Shown one piece after another: positions 17,228-63,807 of a stretch of DNA of 64,000 nucleotides. Position 1 is the stretch's first letter. Every line of letters begins with the position of its first letter. Origin of the DNA: Pseudomonadales bacterium (GTDB lineage Bacteria; Patescibacteriota; Microgenomatia; UBA1400; PJMF01); assembly GCA_020632265.1 (NCBI GenBank), contig JACKFW010000001.1, forward strand, positions 75,785-139,784, written 5' to 3'. A program made the translations under genes and the position numbers. Under the pieces are notes generated by a model. It saw only the letters and a list, made by a program, of their open reading frames with translations. It had not been told where the DNA came from and did no database searches.

Positions 17228-18159
17228 AAAAAAATAGATGTGTAGTTTACGGGGCAACAGGATTTATTGGAGGATATTTAGTAAATGAATTAATTAGAAA
17301 TGAATATTATGTTGTTGCTGTCGGAAGAAATACTGAGAAATTACATAAAAAATTTGGAAATTTGACCAATTCATTAGAAATTAAAGCGTGTGATTTTAAA
17401 GATACAACTAAAAGTATTTCTTTTCTGAGAGAATATGATATTGTTTTTGATCTCGTTGCATCTTCAGTACCTGTAACTTCTGTAAAAATGCCTATTGAAG
17501 AAATTCAAAATAATATTGAGCCACAGGCTGACTTTTTTATGCGTGCTTGTGAAAAAAAGGTTAGTAAAATTATCTTTACCTCATCTGGAGGTAGTATTTA
17601 TGGTGATATGGGTGATAAGCCATTCTCGGAGACAGATTTGCCAAATCCTCAATCACCACATGCAATAGGAAAACTATCTACAGAATATTTTCTCAAATAT
17701 TTTTGCTCAATAGCTCATCTCCCATTTACAATTTTTAGGGTCAGTAATCCCTTTGGGATGGGTCAAGAAAAAACTGAAGGATTTGGAGTAATTCCAACAT
17801 TTTTGGAAGGGATAAGAACTAATACTCCTCCAACTCTGTTTGGGGAAGGAAATTTGGTGCGAGACTTTATTCATGTTCAAGATTTAGTTGAAGCAATTGT
17901 TTTATCATTATATAAAGATAATAATTACTTTATATATAATATTGGAAATGGATCTGGATTAAAAATAAGAGAAGTTTGGGATGTAATCAAAGAAGCCTCT
18001 GGGACTAATTTAGTTCCCATTTTGAAAGAAAGCAGATCTTTTGATATAAAAAAAATAGTTCTAGATATTTCTAGATTTTCAAATGAGTTTACTTGGAAGC
18101 CAAAGACAGATGTGAAGGAATCTATATCGAAGCTAGCTAGATCAATTAAAAACTATTAA
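17224..18159 (+). CDS. NAD-dependent epimerase/dehydratase (extended SDR)
   Basis: 311 aa. Rossmann 'CVVYGATGFIGGYLVNELI'. The catalytic YxxxK region ('HAIGKLSTEYF') is degenerate. Confidence 0.75.
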   Translation: MKKNRCVVYGATGFIGGYLVNELIRNEYYVVAVGRNTEKLHKKFGNLTNSLEIKACDFKDTTKSISFLREYDIVFDLVASSVPVTSVKMPIEEIQNNIEPQADFFMRACEKKVSKIIFTSSGGSIYGDMGDKPFSETDLPNPQSPHAIGKLSTEYFLKYFCSIAHLPFTIFRVSNPFGMGQEKTEGFGVIPTFLEGIRTNTPPTLFGEGNLVRDFIHVQDLVEAIVLSLYKDNNYFIYNIGNGSGLKIREVWDVIKEASGTNLVPILKESRSFDIKKIVLDISRFSNEFTWKPKTDVKESISKLARSIKNY

Positions 18160-18176
18160 TTTGCTGAATCTTATAA

Positions 18177-19232
18177 ATGAAAACAAAATTAAAGAAACCC
18201 AGATTAGTATTTATTGATTTAATCAGGGTAGTTGCTATCTTTTTTGTTATCTTTCATCATTTACATTTTCATTTTTTAGATATGGGATTATTTAGCAAAG
18301 ACGAACTTTGGTCTAATAGTTTTTTTGGTCTGAGTTATGGTGACATTGGTGTTTCACTCTTTATATTTATATCAGGACTTAGTTTAACAATCTCATCAAA
18401 TTATGGAAAATTTAATATAATAAAATTCTTTTCCAAAAGAATTAAAAATATATATCCTGAATTTTTTATTGCTTACTTTTTCTTTTTTTGTTGGTACGCA
18501 TATATGAAATATTTACCAAAAACAGTAGATTTTCCAGGACTTTTACTTTCATTAACTGGACTTGATACATATTTGATATCATTCTTTGATTTTAAATTTT
18601 ATTCATTATTTGATTGGTTTATTGGATTTATTTTAATTTTATATTTAATATTTCCTTTGATGTATTCGATCTACAAAAAAAATCAGTTTCTTTTGTTATT
18701 TACTGCCATTTCTTTGCTTTCTTTTACCTTATATATATCTAATAATCAAATAGATTCTAGGTTTATAACGCTAAGAATTTTAGAATTTTCATTGGGTATG
18801 TTGTATGCAAAAACTGCATTGAGTAAAAATAATGGCAATCATTTCTTGATATTAATGTTTAGTTTATTGGCCTTGTTTACTTTTTATACAACGTCAACAG
18901 TAATATTTTTCTTTATTCGTTTAATTATTGTTGATTATATTTTTATAGAAACAGCTTATTTTATCTGCAGTCATTTTAAAAAGAATAAAATTATTAATAA
19001 ATCAATAACTTATTTAGCTTCAATATCATATTTAATCTTTTTACTTCAACATCAGGTTATAATAAGAATTATGGGAGATATATTTTTACCAAATAAAGTT
19101 TTTTTTGCTCCAGCTTTCATCTCTTCATTGTTATTTCAATCTATATTTATTATTTTATTTATCATATTCTTTGCTGTAATGCTATCAAAAATTGGCAAAA
19201 TAATATTTAATAGATTTATGATTAGTAAATAA
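18177..19232 (+). CDS. Acyltransferase family 3 membrane O-acyltransferase
   Basis: 351 aa, ~10 TM. N-terminus 'RLVFIDLIRVVAIFFVIFHHLHFH' is the typical Acyl_transf_3 first helix with a conserved His. Confidence 0.6.
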   Translation: MKTKLKKPRLVFIDLIRVVAIFFVIFHHLHFHFLDMGLFSKDELWSNSFFGLSYGDIGVSLFIFISGLSLTISSNYGKFNIIKFFSKRIKNIYPEFFIAYFFFFCWYAYMKYLPKTVDFPGLLLSLTGLDTYLISFFDFKFYSLFDWFIGFILILYLIFPLMYSIYKKNQFLLLFTAISLLSFTLYISNNQIDSRFITLRILEFSLGMLYAKTALSKNNGNHFLILMFSLLALFTFYTTSTVIFFFIRLIIVDYIFIETAYFICSHFKKNKIINKSITYLASISYLIFLLQHQVIIRIMGDIFLPNKVFFAPAFISSLLFQSIFIILFIIFFAVMLSKIGKIIFNRFMISK

Positions 19233-19263
19233 TACATATTAGAATTTATAGTGATCAATAAAA

Positions 19264-22125
19264 TTATCCTTTATTTTTTTTAAATATAATTATTAAGCAT
19301 GTTCCTATTGAAATCAGTGAAATTATTTTACCAATATAAAATACTGTTGGTTCGTATTTCATTTCTACTTTAATATTGTGTCCAGCTGGCAAATTAAATC
19401 CTCTGAATGCTAGGTTTACTGGATCAATTTTACCCTTAACTCCATTCATATAGATATTCCAACCAGGGTAATATGCATCTGATAATACTCCATACTGTGG
19501 TTGAGAACTTGAATATTTAAAACTCAATTGATTATCTTCGAAAGAAGATTCTGAAATTATAACCTGAGTTGGGTCAAAATCTTGATTTTCATTATTAATT
19601 CCATCTACAATCGCAATATCTGTAATTTCTTTTCTATATTCATTCATCAACTTTATAATGTTTTCGTATTCAACATCAGAGTTATTTTTACCTATGAAAA
19701 TAGTCTTTTTTACAAAATGTAATCTTGGGACAGCTTGTTTATTCTCATAGATATTCATTAAATCACTATTAATTAATTGATATTTTTGATTAATTTGCAT
19801 TTGTTCATTGTCCCAGATAAATCCTCCCCACCCACTTTGATCATATGAGTTATCGCCGTTTGGATCTGTGATTAATTCCAAATCAAAAGAATATGATTCA
19901 TCTGACTGCGGAAAAGGTCCTAATTTCATCACAGACCATTTTTGATCATCTCGATTATTTGCTGGATCAATTCGAACAGTTTGAAAATCGATTATGTATT
20001 TATCATATATAACTTTAGCAGCAAAAGTAACACCATTTCCTTTGTTAATATTAAATATACCGGGAGAAATGGCTGGATATAAATATAAAAACTTTGCACC
20101 AATAGGTTTAATGATTTTGGCAGCGTCATCTCCAGGAGCGTGTTGAAATAATATATTTTTTGATTCATTTCCAATTTGGAAAGATGAAGCTACTATGTTA
20201 GAATCATTTTTTTTGTTTTTTAAAAAAGTTTCAATAATGTTATTATTGATTAATTTAGATTCTATATCTCCATATGAAATTATGTATTTTACTGACATTA
20301 GATCAAAATAAGGATTGTCAATTAAATTTGCTGATTTTGTGGCGTTGTGCTCTCTAATACCAGTTAATTGAAGAGAATTAGGTTCTGCAAAAAATTCTTT
20401 TATGTAATAGAAATATCTGTCTGGCCATATGGCATCCAATATTCTAATATCATTAAGATCATAAATTGTGGAAAGATTTGGGAACAAAATATGGTCTAAG
20501 CCAAAAATTCTAAATTCTTTATAGTTCTTATTTAGCAAATATGTAAAAGAGGGAGGCTCTCTAAAACTATCTCTTCTCATTTGATCTCCATCTTTAGGAA
20601 AATAAATATATGCTTCTATTAATGCAAGGCATAAAAGGATGTAAGCTATGTGTTTTTTATTTCTTAAAAATATTAATATTGATGTAATAATGAAAACAAT
20701 TATTAGAGCGTAAAATGCATTTGCGCTTATAAAACCAAAATATTTTTTAATATAATGACTTGATAAAATTACATCTTGATAATAATTATTAGCAAAAAAT
20801 ATTGCGTACGAAATAAATAATCCAGATAGTAGCAATACATAATTTCTTTTTTTAAATACCTGATTTAAAAAGATTACTACAGTAGATATCATGGAGAAAC
20901 CAATTAAACTTGAACTATATTTGGTAAAAATAGTTTGTTTGAAGACAGGTAATTTTTCAAAGAAGAAAAAATGAATAATTCCATATTGTTGTAATAGTAA
21001 AACTAACGACAATATCCAAAAGAATAACAGTATTAATATCTGGCTATTATTCTTAATTTTCTTAATCCAAAAAATAAAAGTGCTGCTACATATTATATAT
21101 AAATAAGAAATAATAACTCCAACATGATTTACTGATGCAATGTGAAAATCAATCTTTGTAAGATATTCAGACACATTTCTTAGAGCAAAAAATTCTGGCA
21201 TAGCTAGAAATATAACGTTTTTCCAACTAACAGATTTTGGATTTATTCCAGATACATGCGTGGTAACTCCATTAGAAAGAAATTCGAGTCCTGGCAAGTA
21301 AATAATTGCTCCAATTCCAAGACCAAGTAATAAAATAAATAATCCATATAGAAAATATTTTAAACTATTATTTTTCAAATAAAAAAATGATAAGAATGTT
21401 GAATATAAACCTACGAAAAAAAGTACAAATATACTAGATTCTGGCATACCCCCGAGCATTGATAAACCTAATAGTATTCCAGTTAAACCTATCCACTTTG
21501 GATTTTTATTGAAATATAATTTATTTATTCCCCAAGCAATAAAAGGAATTAGAATGTCAACATTGTGATGAGCGATATTTGGAAGATAAATAAAATATCC
21601 TATAGAAAAATATGATAGACCGGCAAACCATGACAATTCTTTAGATATTTTAAAACTTCTAATAAACAAAAACATACCAATAGAGGCAATAATATATCTA
21701 GTAACAAAAAAAAGATCTAAAAATAGTAAGTTCTTTGTTATTGAGAATAAAATTGAAAATGGCATCAGTGGCAAATAGAATACAGTTGACTGAAAATTAG
21801 CTACCAATGGAAAGCCAACGCCTATATTTTGGCTCCATTTTGGTATTTTTAAATCAAACATTTGCCTGGAACTTTCCATCCAATGAGGCGGGTGTTGCCA
21901 AACATATGCTCCTGGGTCAATCATTGTTTTGCAATACTCATTAAATTTAATGCCTTCTTGCTGAAAAGGCGTGTTCCCTCCCATTACACCATTGGCACAT
22001 TCAAATCCAAATGATTTTCCAAAAAATACATTGAAATAAAATATTAAAGGCAACAAAACAGCTACAATAATTTCTAAGAGAACAGTTTTTTTATGTTTAT
22101 TAAAAAATTTTGACATTATGCTCAA
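19264..22125 (-). CDS. Large (953 aa) polytopic membrane protein, YfhO-like GT-C glycosyltransferase candidate
   Basis: ~13 TM in the N-terminal 520 aa, then a ~380 aa extracytoplasmic domain and a single C-terminal TM anchor ('IISLISIGTCLIIIF'). This architecture matches YfhO-family lipid-linked glycosyl transferases; the family assignment is by architecture and weak motif memory only. Confidence 0.4.
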   Translation of the reverse strand: MSIMSKFFNKHKKTVLLEIIVAVLLPLIFYFNVFFGKSFGFECANGVMGGNTPFQQEGIKFNEYCKTMIDPGAYVWQHPPHWMESSRQMFDLKIPKWSQNIGVGFPLVANFQSTVFYLPLMPFSILFSITKNLLFLDLFFVTRYIIASIGMFLFIRSFKISKELSWFAGLSYFSIGYFIYLPNIAHHNVDILIPFIAWGINKLYFNKNPKWIGLTGILLGLSMLGGMPESSIFVLFFVGLYSTFLSFFYLKNNSLKYFLYGLFILLLGLGIGAIIYLPGLEFLSNGVTTHVSGINPKSVSWKNVIFLAMPEFFALRNVSEYLTKIDFHIASVNHVGVIISYLYIICSSTFIFWIKKIKNNSQILILLFFWILSLVLLLQQYGIIHFFFFEKLPVFKQTIFTKYSSSLIGFSMISTVVIFLNQVFKKRNYVLLLSGLFISYAIFFANNYYQDVILSSHYIKKYFGFISANAFYALIIVFIITSILIFLRNKKHIAYILLCLALIEAYIYFPKDGDQMRRDSFREPPSFTYLLNKNYKEFRIFGLDHILFPNLSTIYDLNDIRILDAIWPDRYFYYIKEFFAEPNSLQLTGIREHNATKSANLIDNPYFDLMSVKYIISYGDIESKLINNNIIETFLKNKKNDSNIVASSFQIGNESKNILFQHAPGDDAAKIIKPIGAKFLYLYPAISPGIFNINKGNGVTFAAKVIYDKYIIDFQTVRIDPANNRDDQKWSVMKLGPFPQSDESYSFDLELITDPNGDNSYDQSGWGGFIWDNEQMQINQKYQLINSDLMNIYENKQAVPRLHFVKKTIFIGKNNSDVEYENIIKLMNEYRKEITDIAIVDGINNENQDFDPTQVIISESSFEDNQLSFKYSSSQPQYGVLSDAYYPGWNIYMNGVKGKIDPVNLAFRGFNLPAGHNIKVEMKYEPTVFYIGKIISLISIGTCLIIIFKKNKG

Positions 22126-22145
22126 AAATATAAATGATAAAGGTA

Positions 22146-23714
22146 TTATTTCTTTAAATATATTATTGCACTACCAATAACATGTGGTGTATTATCAAAT
22201 TCGAAATAGTTTATTCTGTCATTAATAAACTTTGATTTTTCATCTTCATTAATAAATATAGAATTAGAATTAAGAACCATTAGTTTTACATTATTTTTTC
22301 CACTATATTTTAATGATTTTAAGAACCTTAAATCGTTTATAGGTATATAAAATTTATCCATTATCGCCATTCTTTCGGAATAGTATGGAATTGATGAATC
22401 CCAGTCATACCCGTAAATTAATGATATATCATTTTTATTTATACTGGTTTTGATAAATCTACTAATAATGTGAATGTCGGGGCTCATTGTTTTTTGAACT
22501 GGTAAAAAATAATTATAGTATCTTTGGTAAGATAGTATAATTATTAATTGAAATAAAATTATTCCAAGGAATTTTTTATAAGTATTTGATTCTTCTAAGT
22601 AATATAGTATGTTTAAGCTAAGACCAAGAATTAGAAAAAACAAATTTGCATAGAAGTAGTAGCTATGTGTAAAAAAAAGATTAGTAAAAAATATTGGGCC
22701 AATTAGAAAAAATAGATATAAAAATAAAGAATTATTTTTATATTTTGACTTTACCAATAAGGGGATTGTTAATAAAACAAAAACTAAAATTAATATGGTT
22801 ATATTTGAATATTCAAATAAGTTTGAAAAGGTGTGAATGCCTATTTGATTCCAAGTTGATAGAGAAAATTTTTGAGATAATGTACCAAAATTCCATTTTG
22901 TAAGAGCTCCGGAAGTTATAAAGTTAGCCGCCAATGGATTCATATTTTTAACTACATCTGTGTGTTTGATCCATGAGATACCTATTAGAAGTGGTGCTCC
23001 AAATATTATAATACCAGTTTTGATATATCTCCATATATTTTTTAAAAAAATCTGTCCTTTATATTTGTCTGAATAAGTTTTTAATAAATATACGAATGTT
23101 GGAAAGCAAAATATTATAAATGTGGTTATTTTTGTTAATGCTCCAAAAATTCCAGCCATTATTGTTAGAAATAAGATTCTTTTATCATTATTTTTTATAA
23201 AATAAATAGATCCGGTTAAAAATGAAATAGAGAAAAAGAACGCAGTAGATTCCATCATGAATGATCTTGACCAAAATATGTACATTGGATTAGCCAGAAA
23301 TAAAGAAATTGGAATTAGTATAAATATTTTCTTCTTTATAAAATTACTTAACAGGTAATAAATAATAAATATTGATGAATAAAAAAAGAAAATACTTACC
23401 AAGCGTCCTGATTGATCTAAGCCAATGCCAGTTGTATCTGCAAAAATAGCCACCAGTCCCTGATAGGTTGGGAACTCCAAGGGTATAGACCATGGAGCAC
23501 CTAAAACCGGTGTGATGTAATCGATCTTTAAGCCATCTTTCAACAAATAAAATGCTGATATTGCTGTCTGAGTTTGTCTAAACCCGTACATATTAATTAT
23601 GTCATTTTCAAATCCTGTAAATATCTGTACAAAACTTAAAGAAAGAATTACAATAAAGAATATTAAAATATATGAATCTATAAATTTTGATAAAATAGTA
23701 TTCTTTTCTTTCAT
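22146..23714 (-). CDS. Polytopic membrane protein, GT-C-like glycosyltransferase candidate
   Basis: 522 aa, ~11 TM. N-terminal loop 'YGFRQTQTAISAFYLLKDG...LGAPWSIPLEFPTYQG' resembles the conserved first periplasmic loop of GT-C enzymes; no specific family recognised. Confidence 0.35.
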   Translation of the reverse strand: MKEKNTILSKFIDSYILIFFIVILSLSFVQIFTGFENDIINMYGFRQTQTAISAFYLLKDGLKIDYITPVLGAPWSIPLEFPTYQGLVAIFADTTGIGLDQSGRLVSIFFFYSSIFIIYYLLSNFIKKKIFILIPISLFLANPMYIFWSRSFMMESTAFFFSISFLTGSIYFIKNNDKRILFLTIMAGIFGALTKITTFIIFCFPTFVYLLKTYSDKYKGQIFLKNIWRYIKTGIIIFGAPLLIGISWIKHTDVVKNMNPLAANFITSGALTKWNFGTLSQKFSLSTWNQIGIHTFSNLFEYSNITILILVFVLLTIPLLVKSKYKNNSLFLYLFFLIGPIFFTNLFFTHSYYFYANLFFLILGLSLNILYYLEESNTYKKFLGIILFQLIIILSYQRYYNYFLPVQKTMSPDIHIISRFIKTSINKNDISLIYGYDWDSSIPYYSERMAIMDKFYIPINDLRFLKSLKYSGKNNVKLMVLNSNSIFINEDEKSKFINDRINYFEFDNTPHVIGSAIIYLKK

Positions 23715-23723
23715 TTGTTTTTC

Positions 23724-24386
23724 TTAATTTAACTTTTTATAGACTAATAGACTTTGTGCTCCAAAAAATTTCCATAAAATAGGGATTTTAAGATACAATC
23801 TTATCATCCAATCTTTTTTTGGCAGTGTGCTTTTTGTTGTATATGGTAAAAATCTTACAATTTTTTCTACTGAATTAAAACCATTTATTTCAAATATTTC
23901 ATCCAAAGCTCTATCATCTATTGGAGTAATATGATCAAAAAACATCCAATAATCTTTAGAGCAAAATCTAATATTTGGTTGTAAGATGATAATTTTCCCA
24001 TTGTCTTTCAAAATTCTTTTAAATTCAATAATTGTTTTTTGAATTTCTTTTCTAGTTATATGTTCGAAAAAATTACTTACAAATATCTTATCAACTGATT
24101 TATTATTTAACGGTAAAGAATTTGATAATGCTTTATAAAATTTTACTCCCTTATTAAGAAATCTTTTTGAATCAGGATTAATATCAATTGCAATTTTATA
24201 TTTAACATTGATATTGTTAATAAATTCTCCATATCCACATGGTAAATCTAGCACAATATCTTTTTTATCAAAATATTTATAAAAAAAATCATTACATAAT
24301 ATTTTCCACATATTATTACGAAATTCTAAGCCAGTTTGGATAAATCTTTTTTCATACATTTTATCTAATTTTTGATATATTTTCAT
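23724..24386 (-). CDS. Class I SAM-dependent methyltransferase
   Basis: 220 aa. Motif I 'VLDLPCGYGEF'. Post-I acidic 'IAIDINPD'. Motif IV-like 'DKIFVSNFFEH'. Confidence 0.75.
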   Translation of the reverse strand: MKIYQKLDKMYEKRFIQTGLEFRNNMWKILCNDFFYKYFDKKDIVLDLPCGYGEFINNINVKYKIAIDINPDSKRFLNKGVKFYKALSNSLPLNNKSVDKIFVSNFFEHITRKEIQKTIIEFKRILKDNGKIIILQPNIRFCSKDYWMFFDHITPIDDRALDEIFEINGFNSVEKIVRFLPYTTKSTLPKKDWMIRLYLKIPILWKFFGAQSLLVYKKLN

Positions 24387-38671: not shown

Positions 38672-40136
38672 ACCAAAAAACTTTCCAATCTGAATCTACA
38701 TTAATAACCTTTCGCAATTTTTTATCTTTAAATGCCGTCATCGCATAGGACTTATCTTGCCTAAGAATTTCATCTGTTGCAGTGCTAATTACAAACAAGT
38801 GCTCACTAACATCATACTCGCTTGGTTCTCTAAGTCCTGTGTTTCTCATTCTAATGTAATCTCGGTAATCTGCGGCAAGCGGATCACTATCATGACTAGA
38901 GAGTGCCGCCACATTAGCATTATGCAACTTTTCATTATTAATGATGTCAATAATTATTTGACTAGCATTAGTTGTTATTTTCATGCTTGGTGGAACTTCA
39001 GATATTGTTAGTTGATTTTTGATAGTCAATAACGAACCGAGAATTAATATTAAAAATATAAATTTTGCTAAAAATATATTAAGCAATTCTTTGCGTGGCA
39101 AAAGTAGCCATATAAAGAAAAAAACAATGCTTGGATAAACATATCTCATTTGAAAATCATTTATAATCACACCTGCAAAAATAATTAATGTAGCTGGCAC
39201 TATCCATGTTAAAGTTTGATAAGTTTTCGTTTTAAGTTCTCTAATTATCAAGATTAATGAAGTAAATAATAATATAACTTGTAAAAATCCATTCTGTACA
39301 AATGTTTGTAAATAAATTGAAATATCTCTATATAAATGATCTTTAATTAAATCAATGCTATAAACTGTTTCAATTTGAGGAGTGTTACCTCCCAACAAAT
39401 ATTTCCCAAAAAATAATCCCGGTGGGTTTTTCAAATCAAACAAAATAAAAAGTGAGAATGGCAAAGCATATCCAATTAACATAAATAATACTTTTCTAAA
39501 TTGTTTCTTTTTAAAATACTGCAGTGAAATGAGAATTAAAAAAGATACTGTTGAAAAAATTGACACGTAATGATGATGAAACATTGCTCCGAAAGAAAGT
39601 CCCATTATTAAGTAGCTAATCAATCCGAGTGATTTTCTATAAAAAAATAATAGTAATCCTAGCGAAGCCCAAAATATCACAAAATGTGGATTCCAAGCCC
39701 AACGACTCACTAAAACCAGTGGATACCAAATCATAATTAACACACTACCTAAAAATAAAAATTTTGGGTTAACTTTATGAATAATTAATAATAAAAAAAT
39801 AGCAGTTATAAATCCATAAAATGCCATACCATAGACCGTTGACACTGGTGTGAAATTAAAAGCAATCGCAAATGGCATCACCATGTAATAGCTCAGAGAA
39901 CTGAAAACTTTATCTTGTTCACTGGAAATAGGACCCACTAATGATAATTGTTTATTTTGATAATATTGGTGCATGCGAGCGAGATCACTTGATTCATCTC
40001 TAGTAAATCTTGCCGTGCCATCCAGATTATAAAAACGGGTAAATATAACAACTAAAAAGAAAAAAGTCAGTAATAGTTTTGAGTTAAATGAAAGTTTTTG
40101 AAGTTTGTGAAAGTTTTTTGTAATAAATTGGTGCAT
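38658..40136 (-). CDS. GT-C fold membrane glycosyltransferase candidate ('AWNP'-motif family)
   Basis: 492 aa, >=11 TM. 'RFTRDESSDLARM...LVGPISS', 'VLVSRWAWNPHFVIFW'. Paralogous to 5425..6867 and 43642..45438. 14-bp overlap with the upstream gene. Confidence 0.5.
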   Translation of the reverse strand: MHQFITKNFHKLQKLSFNSKLLLTFFFLVVIFTRFYNLDGTARFTRDESSDLARMHQYYQNKQLSLVGPISSEQDKVFSSLSYYMVMPFAIAFNFTPVSTVYGMAFYGFITAIFLLLIIHKVNPKFLFLGSVLIMIWYPLVLVSRWAWNPHFVIFWASLGLLLFFYRKSLGLISYLIMGLSFGAMFHHHYVSIFSTVSFLILISLQYFKKKQFRKVLFMLIGYALPFSLFILFDLKNPPGLFFGKYLLGGNTPQIETVYSIDLIKDHLYRDISIYLQTFVQNGFLQVILLFTSLILIIRELKTKTYQTLTWIVPATLIIFAGVIINDFQMRYVYPSIVFFFIWLLLPRKELLNIFLAKFIFLILILGSLLTIKNQLTISEVPPSMKITTNASQIIIDIINNEKLHNANVAALSSHDSDPLAADYRDYIRMRNTGLREPSEYDVSEHLFVISTATDEILRQDKSYAMTAFKDKKLRKVINVDSDWKVFWYGTE

Positions 40137-53425: not shown

Positions 53426-53576
53426 ATTTATTATACCTTCAAAATGGTTAAAAAAGAAACTATGGAGATTTTAAAAAATCCTAAATTTTCACTAATCATT
53501 CTAAAATAATTTATGCAAAAAATTAGTTTACAATCTGACACATAAATTTATGAAAATATGAAAAAATTATATGAAA

Positions 53577-54509
53577 TTATAAAACTGGCTGTTTACCAAA
53601 TTGAGCAGTCAAAAAGTGAAAAATCCCAAGTCTCTGACGATTATTTCCAAACAGAATATAATTTAGACCCAATCTGAATCCAGCTAGTAGTTGATGCCAA
53701 CCACCATGCTTAAATATAAATATGAATCTATTTCTAGTTTGATAATATTCCTGGACTCCTGATCCAGATCCTCCACTCGAATTAGCATTTTTATGCCAAA
53801 CAATAGATTGAGGTACAAAATGTACTTCATATCCATTTTTTTGTGCTCTAACACTCAAATCAACATCTTCTAAATACAAAAAATATCTTTTATCAAGCGT
53901 ACCGACCTTCTCAAGTACTTCGCGTCTAATAAGCACACTACAACCAGTTGCAAAATCAGATTCCAATTGATTGTCGAAATGTCCTCGATCAACCTCATCA
54001 ACTCCACGATGAAAAGCCACTAAATGGTCCCAATCAATTGAACCACCCGCATACCAAAGTACGTTTCCAAGTTCTTGCTGTGAATACGAATCGACAAAAT
54101 ACTCGTGACCTTTGGCAAAATAAATTTTAGAGCTCATAAGACCTGCTTTTGGATATTTTTCTGCATGATCAATTAATGCTTTTAAAAATTTTGGATCAAC
54201 AATAGTGTCATTATTTAATAATAAAACAAAATCTGAATTATATTTCTCAACACAATAATGAATACCCATATTGTTCCCACCTGTATAACCTAAGTTTGAC
54301 TCGCTTCTAATTACCTCAATATCATTAGTTTTAAGTTTTTTTGGTAAAACAAATGCTTCTTTGGAGCCATTATCGACTATCAAGATCGAAAACTTGAAAC
54401 CACTAGATTTAACTTTCGACAAAGAATTCAGACATTCTAAGGTATCTGGTTGAGAATTATAATTAACAATTACGATTGATATATGTAACACGGTCTTATT
54501 ATACAACAT
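53577..54509 (-). CDS. Family 2 glycosyltransferase (rhamnosyl/galactosyl-transferase-like)
   Basis: 310 aa. 'ISIVIVNYNSQPDTLECLNSL...ILIVDNGSKE', 'VLLLNNDTIV', 'GCSVLIRREVLEKVGTLDKRYFLYLEDVDLSVRAQKNGY'. Confidence 0.85.
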   Translation of the reverse strand: MLYNKTVLHISIVIVNYNSQPDTLECLNSLSKVKSSGFKFSILIVDNGSKEAFVLPKKLKTNDIEVIRSESNLGYTGGNNMGIHYCVEKYNSDFVLLLNNDTIVDPKFLKALIDHAEKYPKAGLMSSKIYFAKGHEYFVDSYSQQELGNVLWYAGGSIDWDHLVAFHRGVDEVDRGHFDNQLESDFATGCSVLIRREVLEKVGTLDKRYFLYLEDVDLSVRAQKNGYEVHFVPQSIVWHKNANSSGGSGSGVQEYYQTRNRFIFIFKHGGWHQLLAGFRLGLNYILFGNNRQRLGIFHFLTAQFGKQPVL

Positions 54510-54551
54510 TAGAAAAATTTAAATATTTCTTCTAAAAAATTATAGCTTTCT

Positions 54552-55502
54552 TCAAAAATACAGTTTTCTTCTAATTTTCCAAAAAAGTTTAATAAAGCCA
54601 GTATTATTTTCCACCTTCCAGTCAGCAATCCAGTAAGCTAACTCTTTTTTAAATTGAGAAATTTCCTCAATTAACTCCTCTTCTTGAGCTTTGTCAGTTT
54701 CTGGAAATCCATTTAAATCCCAAACCTTCATAGCAACAGAAGCCTCAGAAATTGATTGAAGCAAAGACAAGCATAAACCATGACTACCGTCATTAATACC
54801 TCTCTGAGCAAATAGTCTGGATAGTAACTCACTATAAAATTTTTTAAATATAAATTTTGAGTCAATTTGAATATCTTTTGAATCATGAACAAACTCTTTA
54901 GCTTGAATACTACTATAATGATTCATTCTGGTTATATATTGATTAACATGTTGATAATTGTGATGAATAATTGCAATGTCCTTTTGAGCTGGTAATTCTT
55001 TCACTTCACCACTAGTGATAGGTATGGAATGAATATCATCGGACCATTCAACATGACCTTTTCTAAATAATCTCAAAACATGGTCGGGCCACCAACCAGT
55101 TTTTTCAATCCATTTGCCAAATATTAAATTTTGTCTTGGAATGTAATAACAGTCAGCAACTGCTTTTCCAATTTTGTTACCGGATTTTTCCCCACTTTCA
55201 GGGATTTCAGAAATTATATCTAAAATTGTTGTTGCGAGTTTTTTTGGAACTTCCTCGTCTGCATCTAAAATAAATACCCAATCTCCTTTTGCTTTTGAAA
55301 TTGCAAAGTTCCTAGCGGGTTCTACATAACCAACATCATCGTGGGTATATACTTTCTTGGTAAATTTATTTGCAATTAACACCGTATTATCGGTGCTTTT
55401 CATATCTACAACTACAATTTCATCTGCAAACTTTACTGATTGTAATGCTGCTTCAAGCGAAGTTTCTGCATTTTTTGTATTTATCACCACAGAAAGCTTC
55501 AT
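54552..55502 (-). CDS. Family 2 glycosyltransferase (LPS-core-type GT2 paralog)
   Basis: 316 aa. 'MKLSVVINTKNAETSLEAALQSVKFADEIVVVDMKSTDNTVLIA', 'VFILDADEEV', 'TGWWPDHVLRLF'. Confidence 0.75.
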   Translation of the reverse strand: MKLSVVINTKNAETSLEAALQSVKFADEIVVVDMKSTDNTVLIANKFTKKVYTHDDVGYVEPARNFAISKAKGDWVFILDADEEVPKKLATTILDIISEIPESGEKSGNKIGKAVADCYYIPRQNLIFGKWIEKTGWWPDHVLRLFRKGHVEWSDDIHSIPITSGEVKELPAQKDIAIIHHNYQHVNQYITRMNHYSSIQAKEFVHDSKDIQIDSKFIFKKFYSELLSRLFAQRGINDGSHGLCLSLLQSISEASVAMKVWDLNGFPETDKAQEEELIEEISQFKKELAYWIADWKVENNTGFIKLFWKIRRKLYF

Positions 55503-56989: not shown

Positions 56990-58849
56990 TTAATAATCTT
57001 TCTTAACAATTAAGCTCTCTAATTTTTTCTTTAATAATTTCCTATAATAGCAAATTAAGGTTAACAAAAAAATTATAAGTCCAAACAATGACAAGCGATC
57101 AGAAATGATTCTAATTTTGCTTCCCTTAAATTCTAAACCCACTAAATGATTGCCCGCCTCAACAGGCACAATAATAGTTCCCAATTCTCCAACCTGGTGA
57201 GGAATCACATTACCATCAATTTTAGCTGTCCATCCAGGAAAATCAGCTAGAGCAAATTCAACAAGAGTTAGTTCTTGTGTTTCAACTTCAACCAATTTTT
57301 TTTGTGTCATATCTGCAATGATGCTGAATTTAAAATTACAATTATCTTTAGGTATTACTAATTCATTGCCAGTAAGTGAAGATGAATCGACAGACTCAAA
57401 TTCACAAAGAAACATTTTTCCAACAGGAACATAAGTAAACATAGATTTTTCAGACAAAGGTTCTGATTTCGCTATCGCCATTTGAATTGGTATAAAATCT
57501 GGTAAAGTTTTACTCATTTCTGCTCTAATTCTTTGTGAATCATCATAATATCTTAGGTTGGTCTCTGATAAAAAACCAGCTGGCTGAAAAAATTTCCAGT
57601 TTGAAAAAATAATCACTAAAAGAATTGCTCCAGCAAAAAAGAAACGGTGGAATTTTCCTTTCAAAAATTTTGAATTATATCCAATTACGATTGCTAAAAA
57701 TATTATTGAAGCTGACAACCATCGCCACGGAAATTGAATATATGATAAAAAGCTTAATTGATCCCAAATAAATTTTGATTTATAAACTGACATAAACACA
57801 GAAAACAAAAGCAATCCAAGAAATAAGAAATACAAATTAAATTTCTGAGTTAAAAAAAGATATATTTTTTTAGGATGAATTTTCTTTAAATTACCAGTGT
57901 ATGAATAGAATGATTTAATTAGCAGAATCCCAGAAATCGCTAAACCCATTAATTGTCCAGTCCCTAAATAAAATGAAATGTCATCATTTGGACCAAATGA
58001 AGATCCGCCGTATTGCCAATTATCCTCAAAAAATTGTTTGATGGAAAGAAAATGCAAATTGTAATCAAAATAGGTTGCTAGAACAGTTTGATCAATTCTA
58101 GTAAAACTCTTTTCAGCCAAGGCAGGAATTATATAAAAAGTAGAAATTAAAATGGAAAGTAAATAAGTTCCAGTTAACACCAATAATCTGCTGAACAACA
58201 ATTTAAACCAATTTTTCTCTCCATAAAAACTTATCAGCAAATAAACTGCACTAAAAATAATACTCAAAGGTATAAATATTAGCGATGTTAAATTATGGCT
58301 CAAGAGTAAGGTTATCAATGAAAATAGTAAGGTAATCCAACCATTTTTTTTATTTTTAACGACTAAAATTATTCCATAAAGAATAAATGGTAATACCATG
58401 ACACCCCAAGATTCGCTTACAGCACCTCTTACAAATAAATTTAAAGCTCGATATGGTGCCAAAGTAATTGCGGCTGCAACCACAACTCCCCAAGAACTTC
58501 CAAATAATTCTTTACCTAACTTATAGCCTCCAATCACACTTATTAATGCGGAAATCAAAAACAATGCCTTAATAGAATTAATCAAGGAAAAGCCTAGTAA
58601 GTAAATCAAGCCACCAACATAATAGGGAAGCGGTGCATAAAATTCAAATAACGGCATTCCATAACCATAACCAAAATTTTGACTCCACCTAACTGGAAAA
58701 TGACCATCACTAAGAGCATTTTTCATCTCAACGATTCTAGCTCCCTGAGTATAATCATGAACATAAAAAAAATCATTTCTAAAGAGTGCCCAAGAAGAAC
58801 TCCAAAAAATAATAAGAAGTAATAAGAATATAGTGATTTTCTTAATCAT
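56990..58849 (-). CDS. Polytopic membrane protein, candidate GT-C (YfhO-like architecture); paralog of 3604..5337
   Basis: 619 aa. See the shared N-terminal block under 3604..5337. ~13 TM, a C-terminal extracytoplasmic domain and a terminal TM anchor ('LSLFGLIIFLLTLICYY'). Confidence 0.45.
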   Translation of the reverse strand: MIKKITIFLLLLIIFWSSSWALFRNDFFYVHDYTQGARIVEMKNALSDGHFPVRWSQNFGYGYGMPLFEFYAPLPYYVGGLIYLLGFSLINSIKALFLISALISVIGGYKLGKELFGSSWGVVVAAAITLAPYRALNLFVRGAVSESWGVMVLPFILYGIILVVKNKKNGWITLLFSLITLLLSHNLTSLIFIPLSIIFSAVYLLISFYGEKNWFKLLFSRLLVLTGTYLLSILISTFYIIPALAEKSFTRIDQTVLATYFDYNLHFLSIKQFFEDNWQYGGSSFGPNDDISFYLGTGQLMGLAISGILLIKSFYSYTGNLKKIHPKKIYLFLTQKFNLYFLFLGLLLFSVFMSVYKSKFIWDQLSFLSYIQFPWRWLSASIIFLAIVIGYNSKFLKGKFHRFFFAGAILLVIIFSNWKFFQPAGFLSETNLRYYDDSQRIRAEMSKTLPDFIPIQMAIAKSEPLSEKSMFTYVPVGKMFLCEFESVDSSSLTGNELVIPKDNCNFKFSIIADMTQKKLVEVETQELTLVEFALADFPGWTAKIDGNVIPHQVGELGTIIVPVEAGNHLVGLEFKGSKIRIISDRLSLFGLIIFLLTLICYYRKLLKKKLESLIVKKDY

Positions 58850-58901
58850 TAATTTAATTGTAACTCAAAATCAATAAAAAAACCCATTTTTGCACATTAA
58901 T

Positions 58902-58979
58902 GATAAAATATTCTTTGATAAGATGATAAAATGTTGCTAGATATGATGATAAAATATTGTTTGATAAGATGATAAAATG
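58902..58979. promoter_or_regulatory. 32-nt direct repeat (2 copies, 46-bp period, 1 mismatch) in the divergent promoter region upstream of the LCP gene
   Basis: Copy A 58902..58933 'gataaaatattctttgataagatgataaaatg' and copy B 58948..58979 'gataaaatattgtttgataagatgataaaatg'. Each copy contains 'gataaaat' twice. Copy B ends 10 nt before the LCP ATG at 58989. Confidence 0.5.
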
Positions 58980-58988
58980 GAACCCTAA

Positions 58989-60131
58989 ATGAAAGAAAGC
59001 ACTGATACAAAAAATAATCTTGGTCAGGAAATACCAAAACCCAAACCAAAAACCACACCCAAGGCTGTTCCAACTGCTGGATCGATCTTCATAAAAGCCA
59101 CTTTATTAAGCTTGTTTTTTGTGATGATAATGCTGATCATCACCGCTTTTGGATTTGGGATTTGGAGTTTAAATAAGCTGAATAATTTTGCAAGACTTTC
59201 TGGTACTTCGCTTACCGAGTTAAACACAATTTTTCAAGCTGGATGGAATTTGCCAATCACTCAATCTGAGGGACATAAAAATATTCTTCTACTAGGAGTC
59301 GATAGCCTGGAATCAAGACCAGGAAGTCCAGCTCTAACTGATACAATCATGATAATTTCCACTAATTTTAAAACTGGAGAAATTTCAACCATTTCCTTGC
59401 CAAGAGACTTGTGGAGTGATGAATATTTAACCAGAATAAATGCGCTCTACTTTTATGGTCAAGAAAAATATCCTTCTGAGCCTCAAAGATTTACCAAAGA
59501 AGTGGTGGAAAATCTTACTGGCGTTGAAATCCACCACACGATTGTGATTTCTATTAATTCAGTTGCCGAAATTATTGATATTTTGGATGGAGTTGACATT
59601 GATGTAGAACAAGGATTTACCGATACAGAATTTCCAAAAGGAAATGTAGACGTTACAATTGAAAGGGATCCTGCAAAACTTTATGAAACCATTACCTTTG
59701 AAAAAGGCTTACAACGTATGGATGGAGAAAGAGTCCTACAATATATTCGTAGTCGAAAATCTGGAGATGATCAAGGTGATGATATTTCAAGATCCAAGAG
59801 GCAGCAAATCGTGATCAATTCAATGATTGGCAAGTTGCAAAATTTTAACTTGCTGGCAGATGAAGTCGTACTTGCTAAATTATATAAATATTATAATCAA
59901 AATCTATCGAAACAATTTTCTATTGAAGAAGGAATTGCATCAATAAAAGCATTATATCCCTATAGAAATAAACTTACCTTCAATCCAAATAAGTTAAGCA
60001 TATTTCCTCAAGATCCAAACGGAGTAATTTCTAACCCTCCGGTCAATAAATATAAAGGAGAATGGGTTTACGAAATCAGAAACAGAGATCTTTTTAAAGA
60101 AGAAATTTTATCCAAACTTAATTTATTATAG
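58989..60131 (+). CDS. LytR-CpsA-Psr (LCP) family glycopolymer phosphotransferase, N-terminally membrane-anchored
   Basis: 380 aa. A single N-terminal TM follows a Pro/Lys-rich cytoplasmic tail. LCP core 'ILLLGVDSLESRPGSPALTDTIMIISTNFKTGEISTISLPRDLW' and 'VLQYIRSRK...DDISRSKRQQ'. Confidence 0.85.
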   Translation: MKESTDTKNNLGQEIPKPKPKTTPKAVPTAGSIFIKATLLSLFFVMIMLIITAFGFGIWSLNKLNNFARLSGTSLTELNTIFQAGWNLPITQSEGHKNILLLGVDSLESRPGSPALTDTIMIISTNFKTGEISTISLPRDLWSDEYLTRINALYFYGQEKYPSEPQRFTKEVVENLTGVEIHHTIVISINSVAEIIDILDGVDIDVEQGFTDTEFPKGNVDVTIERDPAKLYETITFEKGLQRMDGERVLQYIRSRKSGDDQGDDISRSKRQQIVINSMIGKLQNFNLLADEVVLAKLYKYYNQNLSKQFSIEEGIASIKALYPYRNKLTFNPNKLSIFPQDPNGVISNPPVNKYKGEWVYEIRNRDLFKEEILSKLNLL

Positions 60132-60142
60132 AAGAATTTAAA

Positions 60143-60376
60143 ATGAAATATATTTTAAAAATTGAAAAATCTAAACCAATATCGCAAAAAACTTTAACCA
60201 GGATCTTAGTTTTTATCATATTTATATTAAGTTTAATTGCTGGTTATTACCACAATGCTTTAATTTTAGAAAACCAAAAATATTTAAGACTGGAAGATAG
60301 ATATGTTAGAGTTAGAGGGGAATTAGGAATTGATGAAACTCAAAAACTTATTGATCAGTCCCGTCAAGAAAATTAA
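60143..60376 (+). CDS. Small single-pass membrane protein of unknown function
   Basis: 77 aa. One TM ('ILVFIIFILSLIAGYY') and a charged C-terminus. Tightly packed between the LCP gene and rmlB; no recognisable family. Confidence 0.3.
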   Translation: MKYILKIEKSKPISQKTLTRILVFIIFILSLIAGYYHNALILENQKYLRLEDRYVRVRGELGIDETQKLIDQSRQEN

Positions 60377-63061: not shown

Positions 63062-63128
63062 GGCTTACTTTAGACTGATGGCATAATTTTAGTCTGATGA
63101 CTTAATTTTAGTCCGATGGCTTAATTTT
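63062..63128. repeat. 19-bp tandem repeat, ~3.5 copies, in the convergent intergenic region between rmlD and trmD
   Basis: 'agactgatggcataatttt' / 'agtctgatgacttaatttt' / 'agtccgatggcttaatttt' / 'agtccgatgg'. Preceded by a small GC-rich palindrome 'ccctggacagggg' (~63048..63060). The last partial unit overlaps the trmD stop codon region. Confidence 0.6.
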
Positions 63129-63807
63129 AGTCCGATGGTTTTTCTTGTATTTGCCGGCCTCTCCAATCTTCAACTTTCGTATGGTTTCCTCGCAATAAAA
63201 CTTCTGGGACTTCCCAACCGTTATAACTTCGTGGTCTCGTGTATTGAGCAAAGCCTAATTTTCCAGGAGTTGAATGTGACTCATTTAGAGTACTTTCTTG
63301 ATTGCCCAAAACATTTGGAAGCAATCTAATCACCGCGTCTGAAATAACCACTGCGGCAGCTTCGCCACCAGTCAAGACATAATCGCCGATTCTAATTTCT
63401 TCATCAATCAAATTTTCAGCAACACGTTCGTCAACACCTTCGTAATGACCACATATAATTGTTAGTTCGGTTAACTTAGAATAGTTTTTAGCGATATTCT
63501 GATCGAAAGGCTTGCCCTTAGCTGAGGTCAAAATTATTTTAGATTTTTTTGTTTTAATATTTGCACTCAGTGCTTTTGGTAAATATAAACTTTCAAGTGC
63601 CAAATGAATCGGTTCAACCTTCATAACCATACCAGGACCACCACCGAATGGACGATCATCAGTCAGTTTATGTTTATCTGTCGCAAAATTCCTAATATCA
63701 ACGATATTTATTTCAACCATAGCACCTTCGATTGCTCTTTTAATAATAGAAGTTGAAAAAGGAGACTTAAAATAGTCTGGAAAGATAGTCAAAATGTTTA
63801 CTTTCAT
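63127..63807 (-). CDS. trmD: tRNA (guanine37-N1)-methyltransferase
   Basis: 'MKVNILTIFPDYFKSPFSTSIIKRAIEGAMVEINIVDIRNFATDKHKLTDDRPFGGGPGMVMKVEPI' and 'IICGHYEGVDERV'. The ORF track extends 25 codons further upstream (to 63882), but conservation begins at the internal ATG at 63807. Confidence 0.9.
   Translation of the reverse strand: MKVNILTIFPDYFKSPFSTSIIKRAIEGAMVEINIVDIRNFATDKHKLTDDRPFGGGPGMVMKVEPIHLALESLYLPKALSANIKTKKSKIILTSAKGKPFDQNIAKNYSKLTELTIICGHYEGVDERVAENLIDEEIRIGDYVLTGGEAAAVVISDAVIRLLPNVLGNQESTLNESHSTPGKLGFAQYTRPRSYNGWEVPEVLLRGNHTKVEDWRGRQIQEKPSD

Follow-up and report, generated by a model that had tools for sequence, protein, structure and literature searches.

Tandem copies of a putative extended -10 promoter element upstream of an LCP gene in a Pacebacteria envelope glycan island

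The LCP locus and its setting

The window considered here, i.e. the whole 64-kb stretch of DNA that was analysed, is of ~30% GC and contains at 58989-60131 on the plus strand an LCP (LytR-CpsA-Psr) gene, the 380-aa product of which matches Pfam LytR_cpsA_psr with E = 1e-28. A tandem repeat array sits in the 139-bp region that separates this gene from a divergent 619-aa ORF at 56990-58849 on the minus strand (start 58849). The 619-aa product is a polytopic membrane protein and a GT-C candidate; its sole Pfam match is sub-threshold (PF10131 PTPS_related, E = 0.067), and its homologue in the relative L008 carries the PF10131 PTPS_related family. The LCP gene heads an operon that extends to 63000 on the plus strand in the order LCP, a 77-aa ORF, rmlB, rmlC and an rmlD-like gene. 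The small ORF at 60143-60376, for which no significant Pfam match was found, and its counterparts in L001, L004 and L007-L010 are 54-82 aa long and lie directly 3' of LCP; an ORF is present at this place in every syntenic relative, and a hydrophobic stretch suggests one transmembrane segment. In this LCP clade the small ORF is a conserved, as yet uncharacterised partner gene.

Pfam scans of 51 ORFs identify the whole 64 kb as a cell-envelope glycan island, with TrmD at the right edge. The families found are GT2, GT4, PMT-like GT-C, Wzx, Wzy, an ABC-2 exporter, acyltransferases, epimerases, RmlB/C/D and LCP. The gene content includes many GT2 and several GT1/GT4 genes, four ORFs with PMT/PMT_2-type GT-C matches, two Wzx-type flippases, a 1165-aa Wzy_C protein, YfhO, DUF2079, the ABC-2 exporter, a PAPS reductase together with a sulfatase-like enzyme, five NAD-dependent epimerase/dehydratase genes besides RmlB/C/D, and several large membrane proteins without a significant Pfam match. 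At 64 kb the island occupies a very large fraction of a ~1.08-Mb genome. The LCP homologues place the host in the CPR / Patescibacteria, among Candidatus Pacebacteria genomes. A protein identical to the LCP product of 58989-60131 is named by NCBI 'LCP family protein [Pseudomonadales bacterium]'; since all LCP relatives belong to the CPR / Patescibacteria, and since GC and gene content are CPR-like, the Pseudomonadales label is probably wrong. The cumulative GC skew has a peak at ~18000-24000 that looks like a replication terminus, and gene orientation flips from plus to minus (convergent) at ~19.2 kb.

Read from the divergent gene towards LCP, the intergenic region holds a -10-like hexamer TACAAT of the 619-aa gene on the minus strand (58857-58862, 7 nt before its ATG at 58849), a non-repetitive AT-rich spacer of 37 bp (58863-58899), the array, and, between the array and the LCP ATG, the sequence gaaccctaa at 58980-58988 on the plus strand, which is the discriminator and predicted transcription start zone. 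Nothing in the 42-bp intergenic region of the relatives corresponds to this spacer, the similarity of which to the repeat unit is not significant. The LCP start codon is an AUG whose position fits the N-termini of the relatives (M-K/N/T-E...), and gaaccctaaATG upstream of it is without a GGAG, GAGG, AGGA or AAGG Shine-Dalgarno 4-mer. A structured RNA leader or riboswitch was considered and rejected: folding at the array gives an MFE of -7 kcal/mol with z = +0.71 versus shuffles, i.e. no stable structure, an Rfam search of the window gave no family at gathering score, and there are no tRNAs.

Structure and authenticity of the array

A repeat finder and Tandem Repeats Finder (TRF) both delimit at 58900-58978 a tandem array with a period of 23 bp and 3.4 units; the TRF score of 123, with 83% matches and zero indels, is the highest in the window. 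The units start at 58900, 58923, 58946 and 58969, each opens with ATGATAAAAT, and there are exactly four TGATAAAAT sites, at 58901, 58924, 58947 and 58970. Unit 1 (ATGATAAAATATTCTTTGATAAG, 58900-58922, plus strand like the others) carries TGATAAAAT at 58901-58909 with the hexamer TAAAAT at 58904-58909; unit 2 (ATGATAAAATGTTGCTAGATATG, 58923-58945), the most diverged, carries it at 58924-58932; and unit 3 (ATGATAAAATATTGTTTGATAAG, 58946-58968) at 58947-58955. In the promoter-proximal partial unit 4 (ATGATAAAATG, 58969-58979), presumably the ancestral copy, the site lies at 58970-58978 and its hexamer TAAAAT at 58973-58978, 10 nt before the LCP ATG. The 10-mer is the same in each of the four units, while the spacers in between have diverged: units 1 and 3 agree at 22/23 positions, unit 2 agrees with these two at 18-19/23, and unit 4 agrees with unit 2 at 16/23. 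A secondary, overlapping -10-like sequence, TGATAAGAT, is found on the plus strand at 58916-58924 in unit 1 and again at 58962-58970 in unit 3, and together with TGATAAAAT it accounts for an 8-bp sub-periodicity of the array.

The initial annotation of this locus had reported a near-perfect direct repeat of two 32-nt copies with a 46-bp period upstream of LCP in the divergent promoter region. The repeat is real, and in full is 34 nt long: 58900-58933 and 58946-58979, offset by 46 bp and lying between the two start codons at 58849 and 58989, are identical at 33/34 positions. The true period, though, is 23 bp, 46 bp being the distance to every second unit, and the two 32-mers (units 1+2 and 3+4) look near-perfect because units 1 and 3 match so closely and unit 2 matches them so much less. 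The further half-site placed by the same annotation at ~58901 is the start of the first copy, which leaves four TGATAAAAT sites and not five. A clean-edged duplication of 46 bp was rejected, the last 12 nt of the two 46-mers matching only 5/12 and unit 4 matching unit 2 only 16/23, and older degenerate units in 58850-58899 were likewise rejected (local alignment score 12 versus 13.6-14.3 in shuffles).

Several mini-ORFs overlap in 58900-58992, namely 58900-58926 (MIKYSLIR), 58943/58946-58972 ((M)MIKYCLIR) and 58969-58992 (MIKWNPK), and the TGA stop of the last overlaps the LCP ATG (ATGA). The overlapping chain arises because there is an ATGA in each unit and the period is 23 (2 mod 3). It is not conserved in the relatives and is probably a by-product of the array periodicity.

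Chance was assessed with 60 dinucleotide-preserving shuffles of the window, from each of which the best tandem-repeat score at a period of at least 10 was taken; these scores average 57 +/- 8 with a maximum of 76, versus 123 for the array, which is therefore not due to chance. Nor is the array an assembly artefact, since it is base-for-base identical in three independent Logan assemblies (L004-L006) from the three sequencing runs SRR12358676, SRR28385529 and SRR28385526. The same three assemblies are 100% identical to the window across 3.6-11 kb and thus represent one clone re-sampled, not evolutionary conservation.

Only one other array in the window exceeds chance. It lies at 63069-63138 and consists of 3.7 units of 19 bp, with a TRF score of 105 versus the shuffle maximum of 76, so that the statement of the initial annotation that no such repeat occurs in other intergenic regions does not hold. 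In the minus-strand reading this array contains four times the last 12 nt of trmD (CCATCGGACTAA = Pro-Ser-Asp-stop) followed by a 7-nt spacer; it lies downstream of the intact trmD stop codon and is a boundary-preserving duplication, absent from the relative L001 and identical in L004/L005. The genome therefore tolerates slippage products where an intact copy remains beside the gene. The two arrays bracket the LCP-rmlBCD operon. Weaker tandem duplications at 53544-53584, 54526-54574 and 79-112 (periods 21, 18 and 13) score 54-61, within the shuffle range, and are individually not significant; like the two strong arrays they are found at gene 3' ends or intergenic junctions.

The repeated core and the orthologous promoters

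The motif TGnTAAAAT, which occurs four times in the array, has a TG one base upstream of a TAnnnT hexamer, and TAAAAT agrees with TATAAT at 5/6 positions with A2 and T6 kept. The repeated core is best identified, from sequence comparison, as the putative extended -10 promoter element of the LCP gene, because of its conserved position in the orthologs and because of the -10-like hexamers at the start codons of the window.

The nearest relatives (L001, L007-L016) have LCP proteins of 62-70% identity and are fully syntenic. Among 5.8 billion proteins there is none with LCP identity between 70% and 100%, and genome and metagenome scans yielded relatives at 70% identity or below only. The LCP intergenic region of the relatives measures only 42 bp and reads cat-tacatttaattgtaaactatttagATG(T/C)TAAAATaaaacttg-ATG; its only AGATGnTAAAAT (AGATG(T/C)TAAAAT) is placed 8 nt upstream of the LCP start codon. 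The multiple alignment shows this 12-mer to be invariant except for n, as seen in L001, L007, L008 and L011, and pairs it with the last unit of the array. On the opposite strand the divergent gene of the relatives is preceded, at 8 nt from its ATG, by TACAAT, a hexamer that the window shares. The divergent -10 boxes are 14 bp apart in the relatives versus 42-110 bp here. Tandem Repeats Finder detected no array upstream of LCP in the other loci (~315 kb of related DNA); since the relatives keep the element as a single copy and lack the array, the array was gained in this lineage. Further afield in the CPR, reading by eye finds a -10-like hexamer 5-9 nt upstream of the LCP start in ~11/19 lineages, e.g. 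TATAAT 6 nt before GTG/ATG in L026-L031 and TATACT 8 nt before ATG in L002/L003.

The same layout was sought across the window, a -10-like hexamer being defined by A2, T6, at least 5/6 matches to TATAAT and a position 5-11 nt before the start codon. Such a hexamer precedes 14/49 long ORFs, versus 3.6 expected from all ATGs of the window, and is found at 12/24 operon-first genes versus 2/26 internal genes; the expectation for operon-first genes is ~1.7 (7.3% per gene), giving a binomial P of 2.5e-8. The operon-first genes concerned have starts at, e.g., 5337(-), 5425(+), 9331(-), 9395(+) and 27431(+), and further at 40136(-), 45438(-), 49076(-) and 58849(-). A TGn extension is carried by 4/14 of the hexamers, and just 13 genes of the window have even a 4-mer Shine-Dalgarno match. 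For LCP the hexamer lies 10 nt from the start, farther than the 8 nt of the relatives and the 7-9 nt that are most common in the window. A scan with the sigma-70 -35/-10 consensus gave at the array only three minus-strand TTATCA-N18-TATCAT matches, which are produced by the periodicity itself and were rejected as promoters; the count of 4 versus 2.4 +/- 1.7 expected is not significant.

Leaderless genes have as their published signature a TANNNT signal ~12 bp upstream of the translation start, or ~10 bp upstream of the transcription start; in low-GC genomes a TG is added to the signal and takes the place of the -35 box (Zheng et al. 2011, PMC3160421). The presence of the hexamer at half of the operon-first genes suggests that leaderless promoters are the local rule, and the prevailing promoter-proximal architecture of this Pacebacteria genome appears to be the leaderless mRNA. 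LCP itself is best read as a putative leaderless gene or one with a 2-4-nt leader, both ends being equally likely. The literature search found no paper on leaderless usage in Pacebacteria and nothing specific for the CPR; in the 49-species start-site table of PMC12641261, Nanosynbacter lyticus is the only CPR entry.

Origin of the array and comparison with known systems

The array probably arose in this lineage by tandem duplication of the LCP core promoter, which added three units of 23 bp; from this promoter an mRNA with no leader or almost none would be made. The primary sigma factor would direct RNA polymerase to TG-n-TAAAAT without a -35 box; from the proximal copy at 58970-58978 transcription would start at ~58984-58988, ~7 nt after the hexamer, leaving a predicted leader of 0-4 nt, and ribosomes would begin translation directly at the 5'-terminal AUG of the LCP mRNA. 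The three upstream copies, with their identical 10-mer, are potential extra promoters and are likely competent in a -10-driven system, where the leaders of their transcripts would be longer by ~26, 49 and 72 nt, unstructured and free of a Shine-Dalgarno sequence. Together, the duplication and the 37-bp spacer at 58863-58899 would have set the LCP promoter apart from the divergent gene's -10 box. The fitness effect of the array is most likely small, the array being a near-neutral slippage product; such an origin is favoured because the trmD array exemplifies slippage duplications kept beside an intact copy. Two caveats attach to this explanation: a single simple event does not explain the near-identity of units 1 and 3 with unit 2 diverged, and the conservation of AGATGnTAAAAT could also reflect a factor site that overlaps the promoter.

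Selection may instead have acted on the copies. Adaptive promoter amplification, which is a sub-case of the duplicated core promoter and appears unlikely, would have all of the extra -10 boxes active and selected to raise LCP-rml transcription or to decouple it from the divergent promoter. The four 10-mers have stayed identical despite diverged spacers, as purifying selection on the boxes would give, but recent duplication or gene conversion explains identical cores equally well. The relatives' divergent boxes are so close, at 14 bp, that polymerases must compete, and here they are 42-110 bp apart; other divergent intergenic regions of this genome span 63-138 bp. Initiation at the upstream copies, on the other hand, would burden an otherwise leaderless gene with leaders that lack a ribosome-binding site, and might block the proximal promoter. 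It is also rather doubtful, judging from the sequence, that the four boxes form a selected multi-start cassette, all firing, with upstream transcripts translated by way of the overlapping mini-ORFs, the last TGA of which overlaps the LCP ATG. If true, such a cassette would raise LCP-rml transcription or insulate the operon from the back-to-back divergent promoter, and would show a promoter evolving through duplicated units in a CPR transcription system that is leaderless and relies on the -10 box only. Least probable is a contingency repeat, in which slippage of 23- or 46-bp units alters promoter number and divergent spacing and so tunes glycan attachment. That the tandem repeat occupies a surface-glycan gene's promoter, inside a 64-kb envelope glycan island, invites this proposal, and the 34-nt repeats 46 bp apart are a plausible substrate for deletion and duplication; yet the units are imperfect (18-22/23), few and long, unlike high-frequency slippage tracts, and the same array is found in the window and in three assemblies, a weak test since these are one clone.

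The initial annotation favoured a binding array for a response regulator or other dimeric factor, with sites at helical-phase-compatible spacing. A factor bound cooperatively at the four ATGATAAAAT sites would regulate both the LCP and the membrane-protein gene, and a divergent promoter region in which the same 10-mer recurs four times, every 23 bp, is what such a factor might use; the core is also kept as a single copy in relatives, and a 10-bp core with a 13-bp spacer recalls LytTR-type sites. The reading is nonetheless improbable. Orthologous promoters have the single copy only, at the position demanded of a -10 box, and the repeated sites are not conserved. The composite 17-mer TGATAAGATGATAAAAT occurs nowhere else within the 64-kb window, ATGATAAAAT with at most one mismatch is not enriched there (33 matches versus 40 expected), and TGNTAAAAT has 16 matches versus 15.7 expected. 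The spacing is off helical phase, 23 bp being 2.19 turns and 46 bp 4.38 turns at 10.5 bp/turn, so that successive sites face different sides of the helix; the TGATAA half-sites are 8 bp apart, versus 10-11 bp for regulator half-sites. The Pfam scan of the 51 window ORFs revealed no HTH, receiver, LytTR or other DNA-binding domain, and a sigma-factor target would fully account for the motif. These results give the regulator array no support, and the local promoter duplication that the annotation had offered as its alternative is borne out to the extent that the repeated core coincides with the conserved putative extended -10 element of the LCP gene.

Other candidates were tried and rejected. 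A mobile-element or phage origin was sought in 2.9 million viral contigs, which gave five single exact matches to an 18-mer (the 17-mer plus R), none tandem, taken as chance. Replication-origin iterons are at odds with the ORFs scanned, which include no replication-initiator family, and with the sole skew turning point, which is terminus-like. Fur, DnaA and IHF boxes, judged by eye against consensus sequences, gave poor matches.

Because the array is best read as a core-promoter duplication, and a strain-specific one, a regulator-binding-site annotation is unwarranted and should not be carried by it. It is a further instance of a known event, tandem duplication in a promoter region, and no new kind of system. 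Set beside the relatives, the array nevertheless offers a natural comparison of one copy with four for the effects that promoter number and the spacing of divergent promoters have on expression in a minimal transcription system, and the evidence for -10-only, leaderless promoters bears on gene-start calling and promoter prediction in CPR genomes.

Among known arrangements of direct repeats, the LytTR-type regulators AgrA and ComE bind 9-bp repeats with 12-13-bp spacers, and OmpR/PhoB-type sites are direct repeats with a 10-11-bp period. The array resembles the LytTR sites in its direct repeats, ~10-bp core, ~13-bp spacer and location in a divergent promoter region. Unlike the sites of either family, its core is a putative -10 box ending 10 nt from the ATG and does not lie upstream of a -35 box, no pair is conserved in relatives, no such regulator is encoded in the window, and the period does not fit the helical phase. 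Contingency promoter repeats, e.g. the 7-bp repeats of Haemophilus influenzae hmw and the TAAA tract of Neisseria meningitidis nadA, share with the array a tandem repeat placed among the promoter elements of a surface-structure gene, where copy number could tune expression. The array units differ in being long (23 bp), few (3.4) and imperfect, and there is no copy-number polymorphism among four assemblies, all clonal (100% identity up to 11 kb).

Tandem promoters such as E. coli rrn P1/P2 and gal P1/P2 are non-repetitive and differentially regulated. As in these, core promoters would stand in series before one gene and nested 5' ends would be expected; unlike these, the copies in the array are a recent sequence duplication with identical -10 boxes. 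The closest likeness is to the extended -10 (TGn-TATAAT) promoters of leaderless genes in low-GC bacteria (PMC3160421), from which the present case differs in having the element four times in tandem. The shared features are a TG-n-TAAAAT without a recognisable -35 box, an element 10 nt before the ATG and no Shine-Dalgarno sequence, and the leaderless-type layout is seen again at the orthologous LCP genes and, within the window, at one operon-first gene in two.
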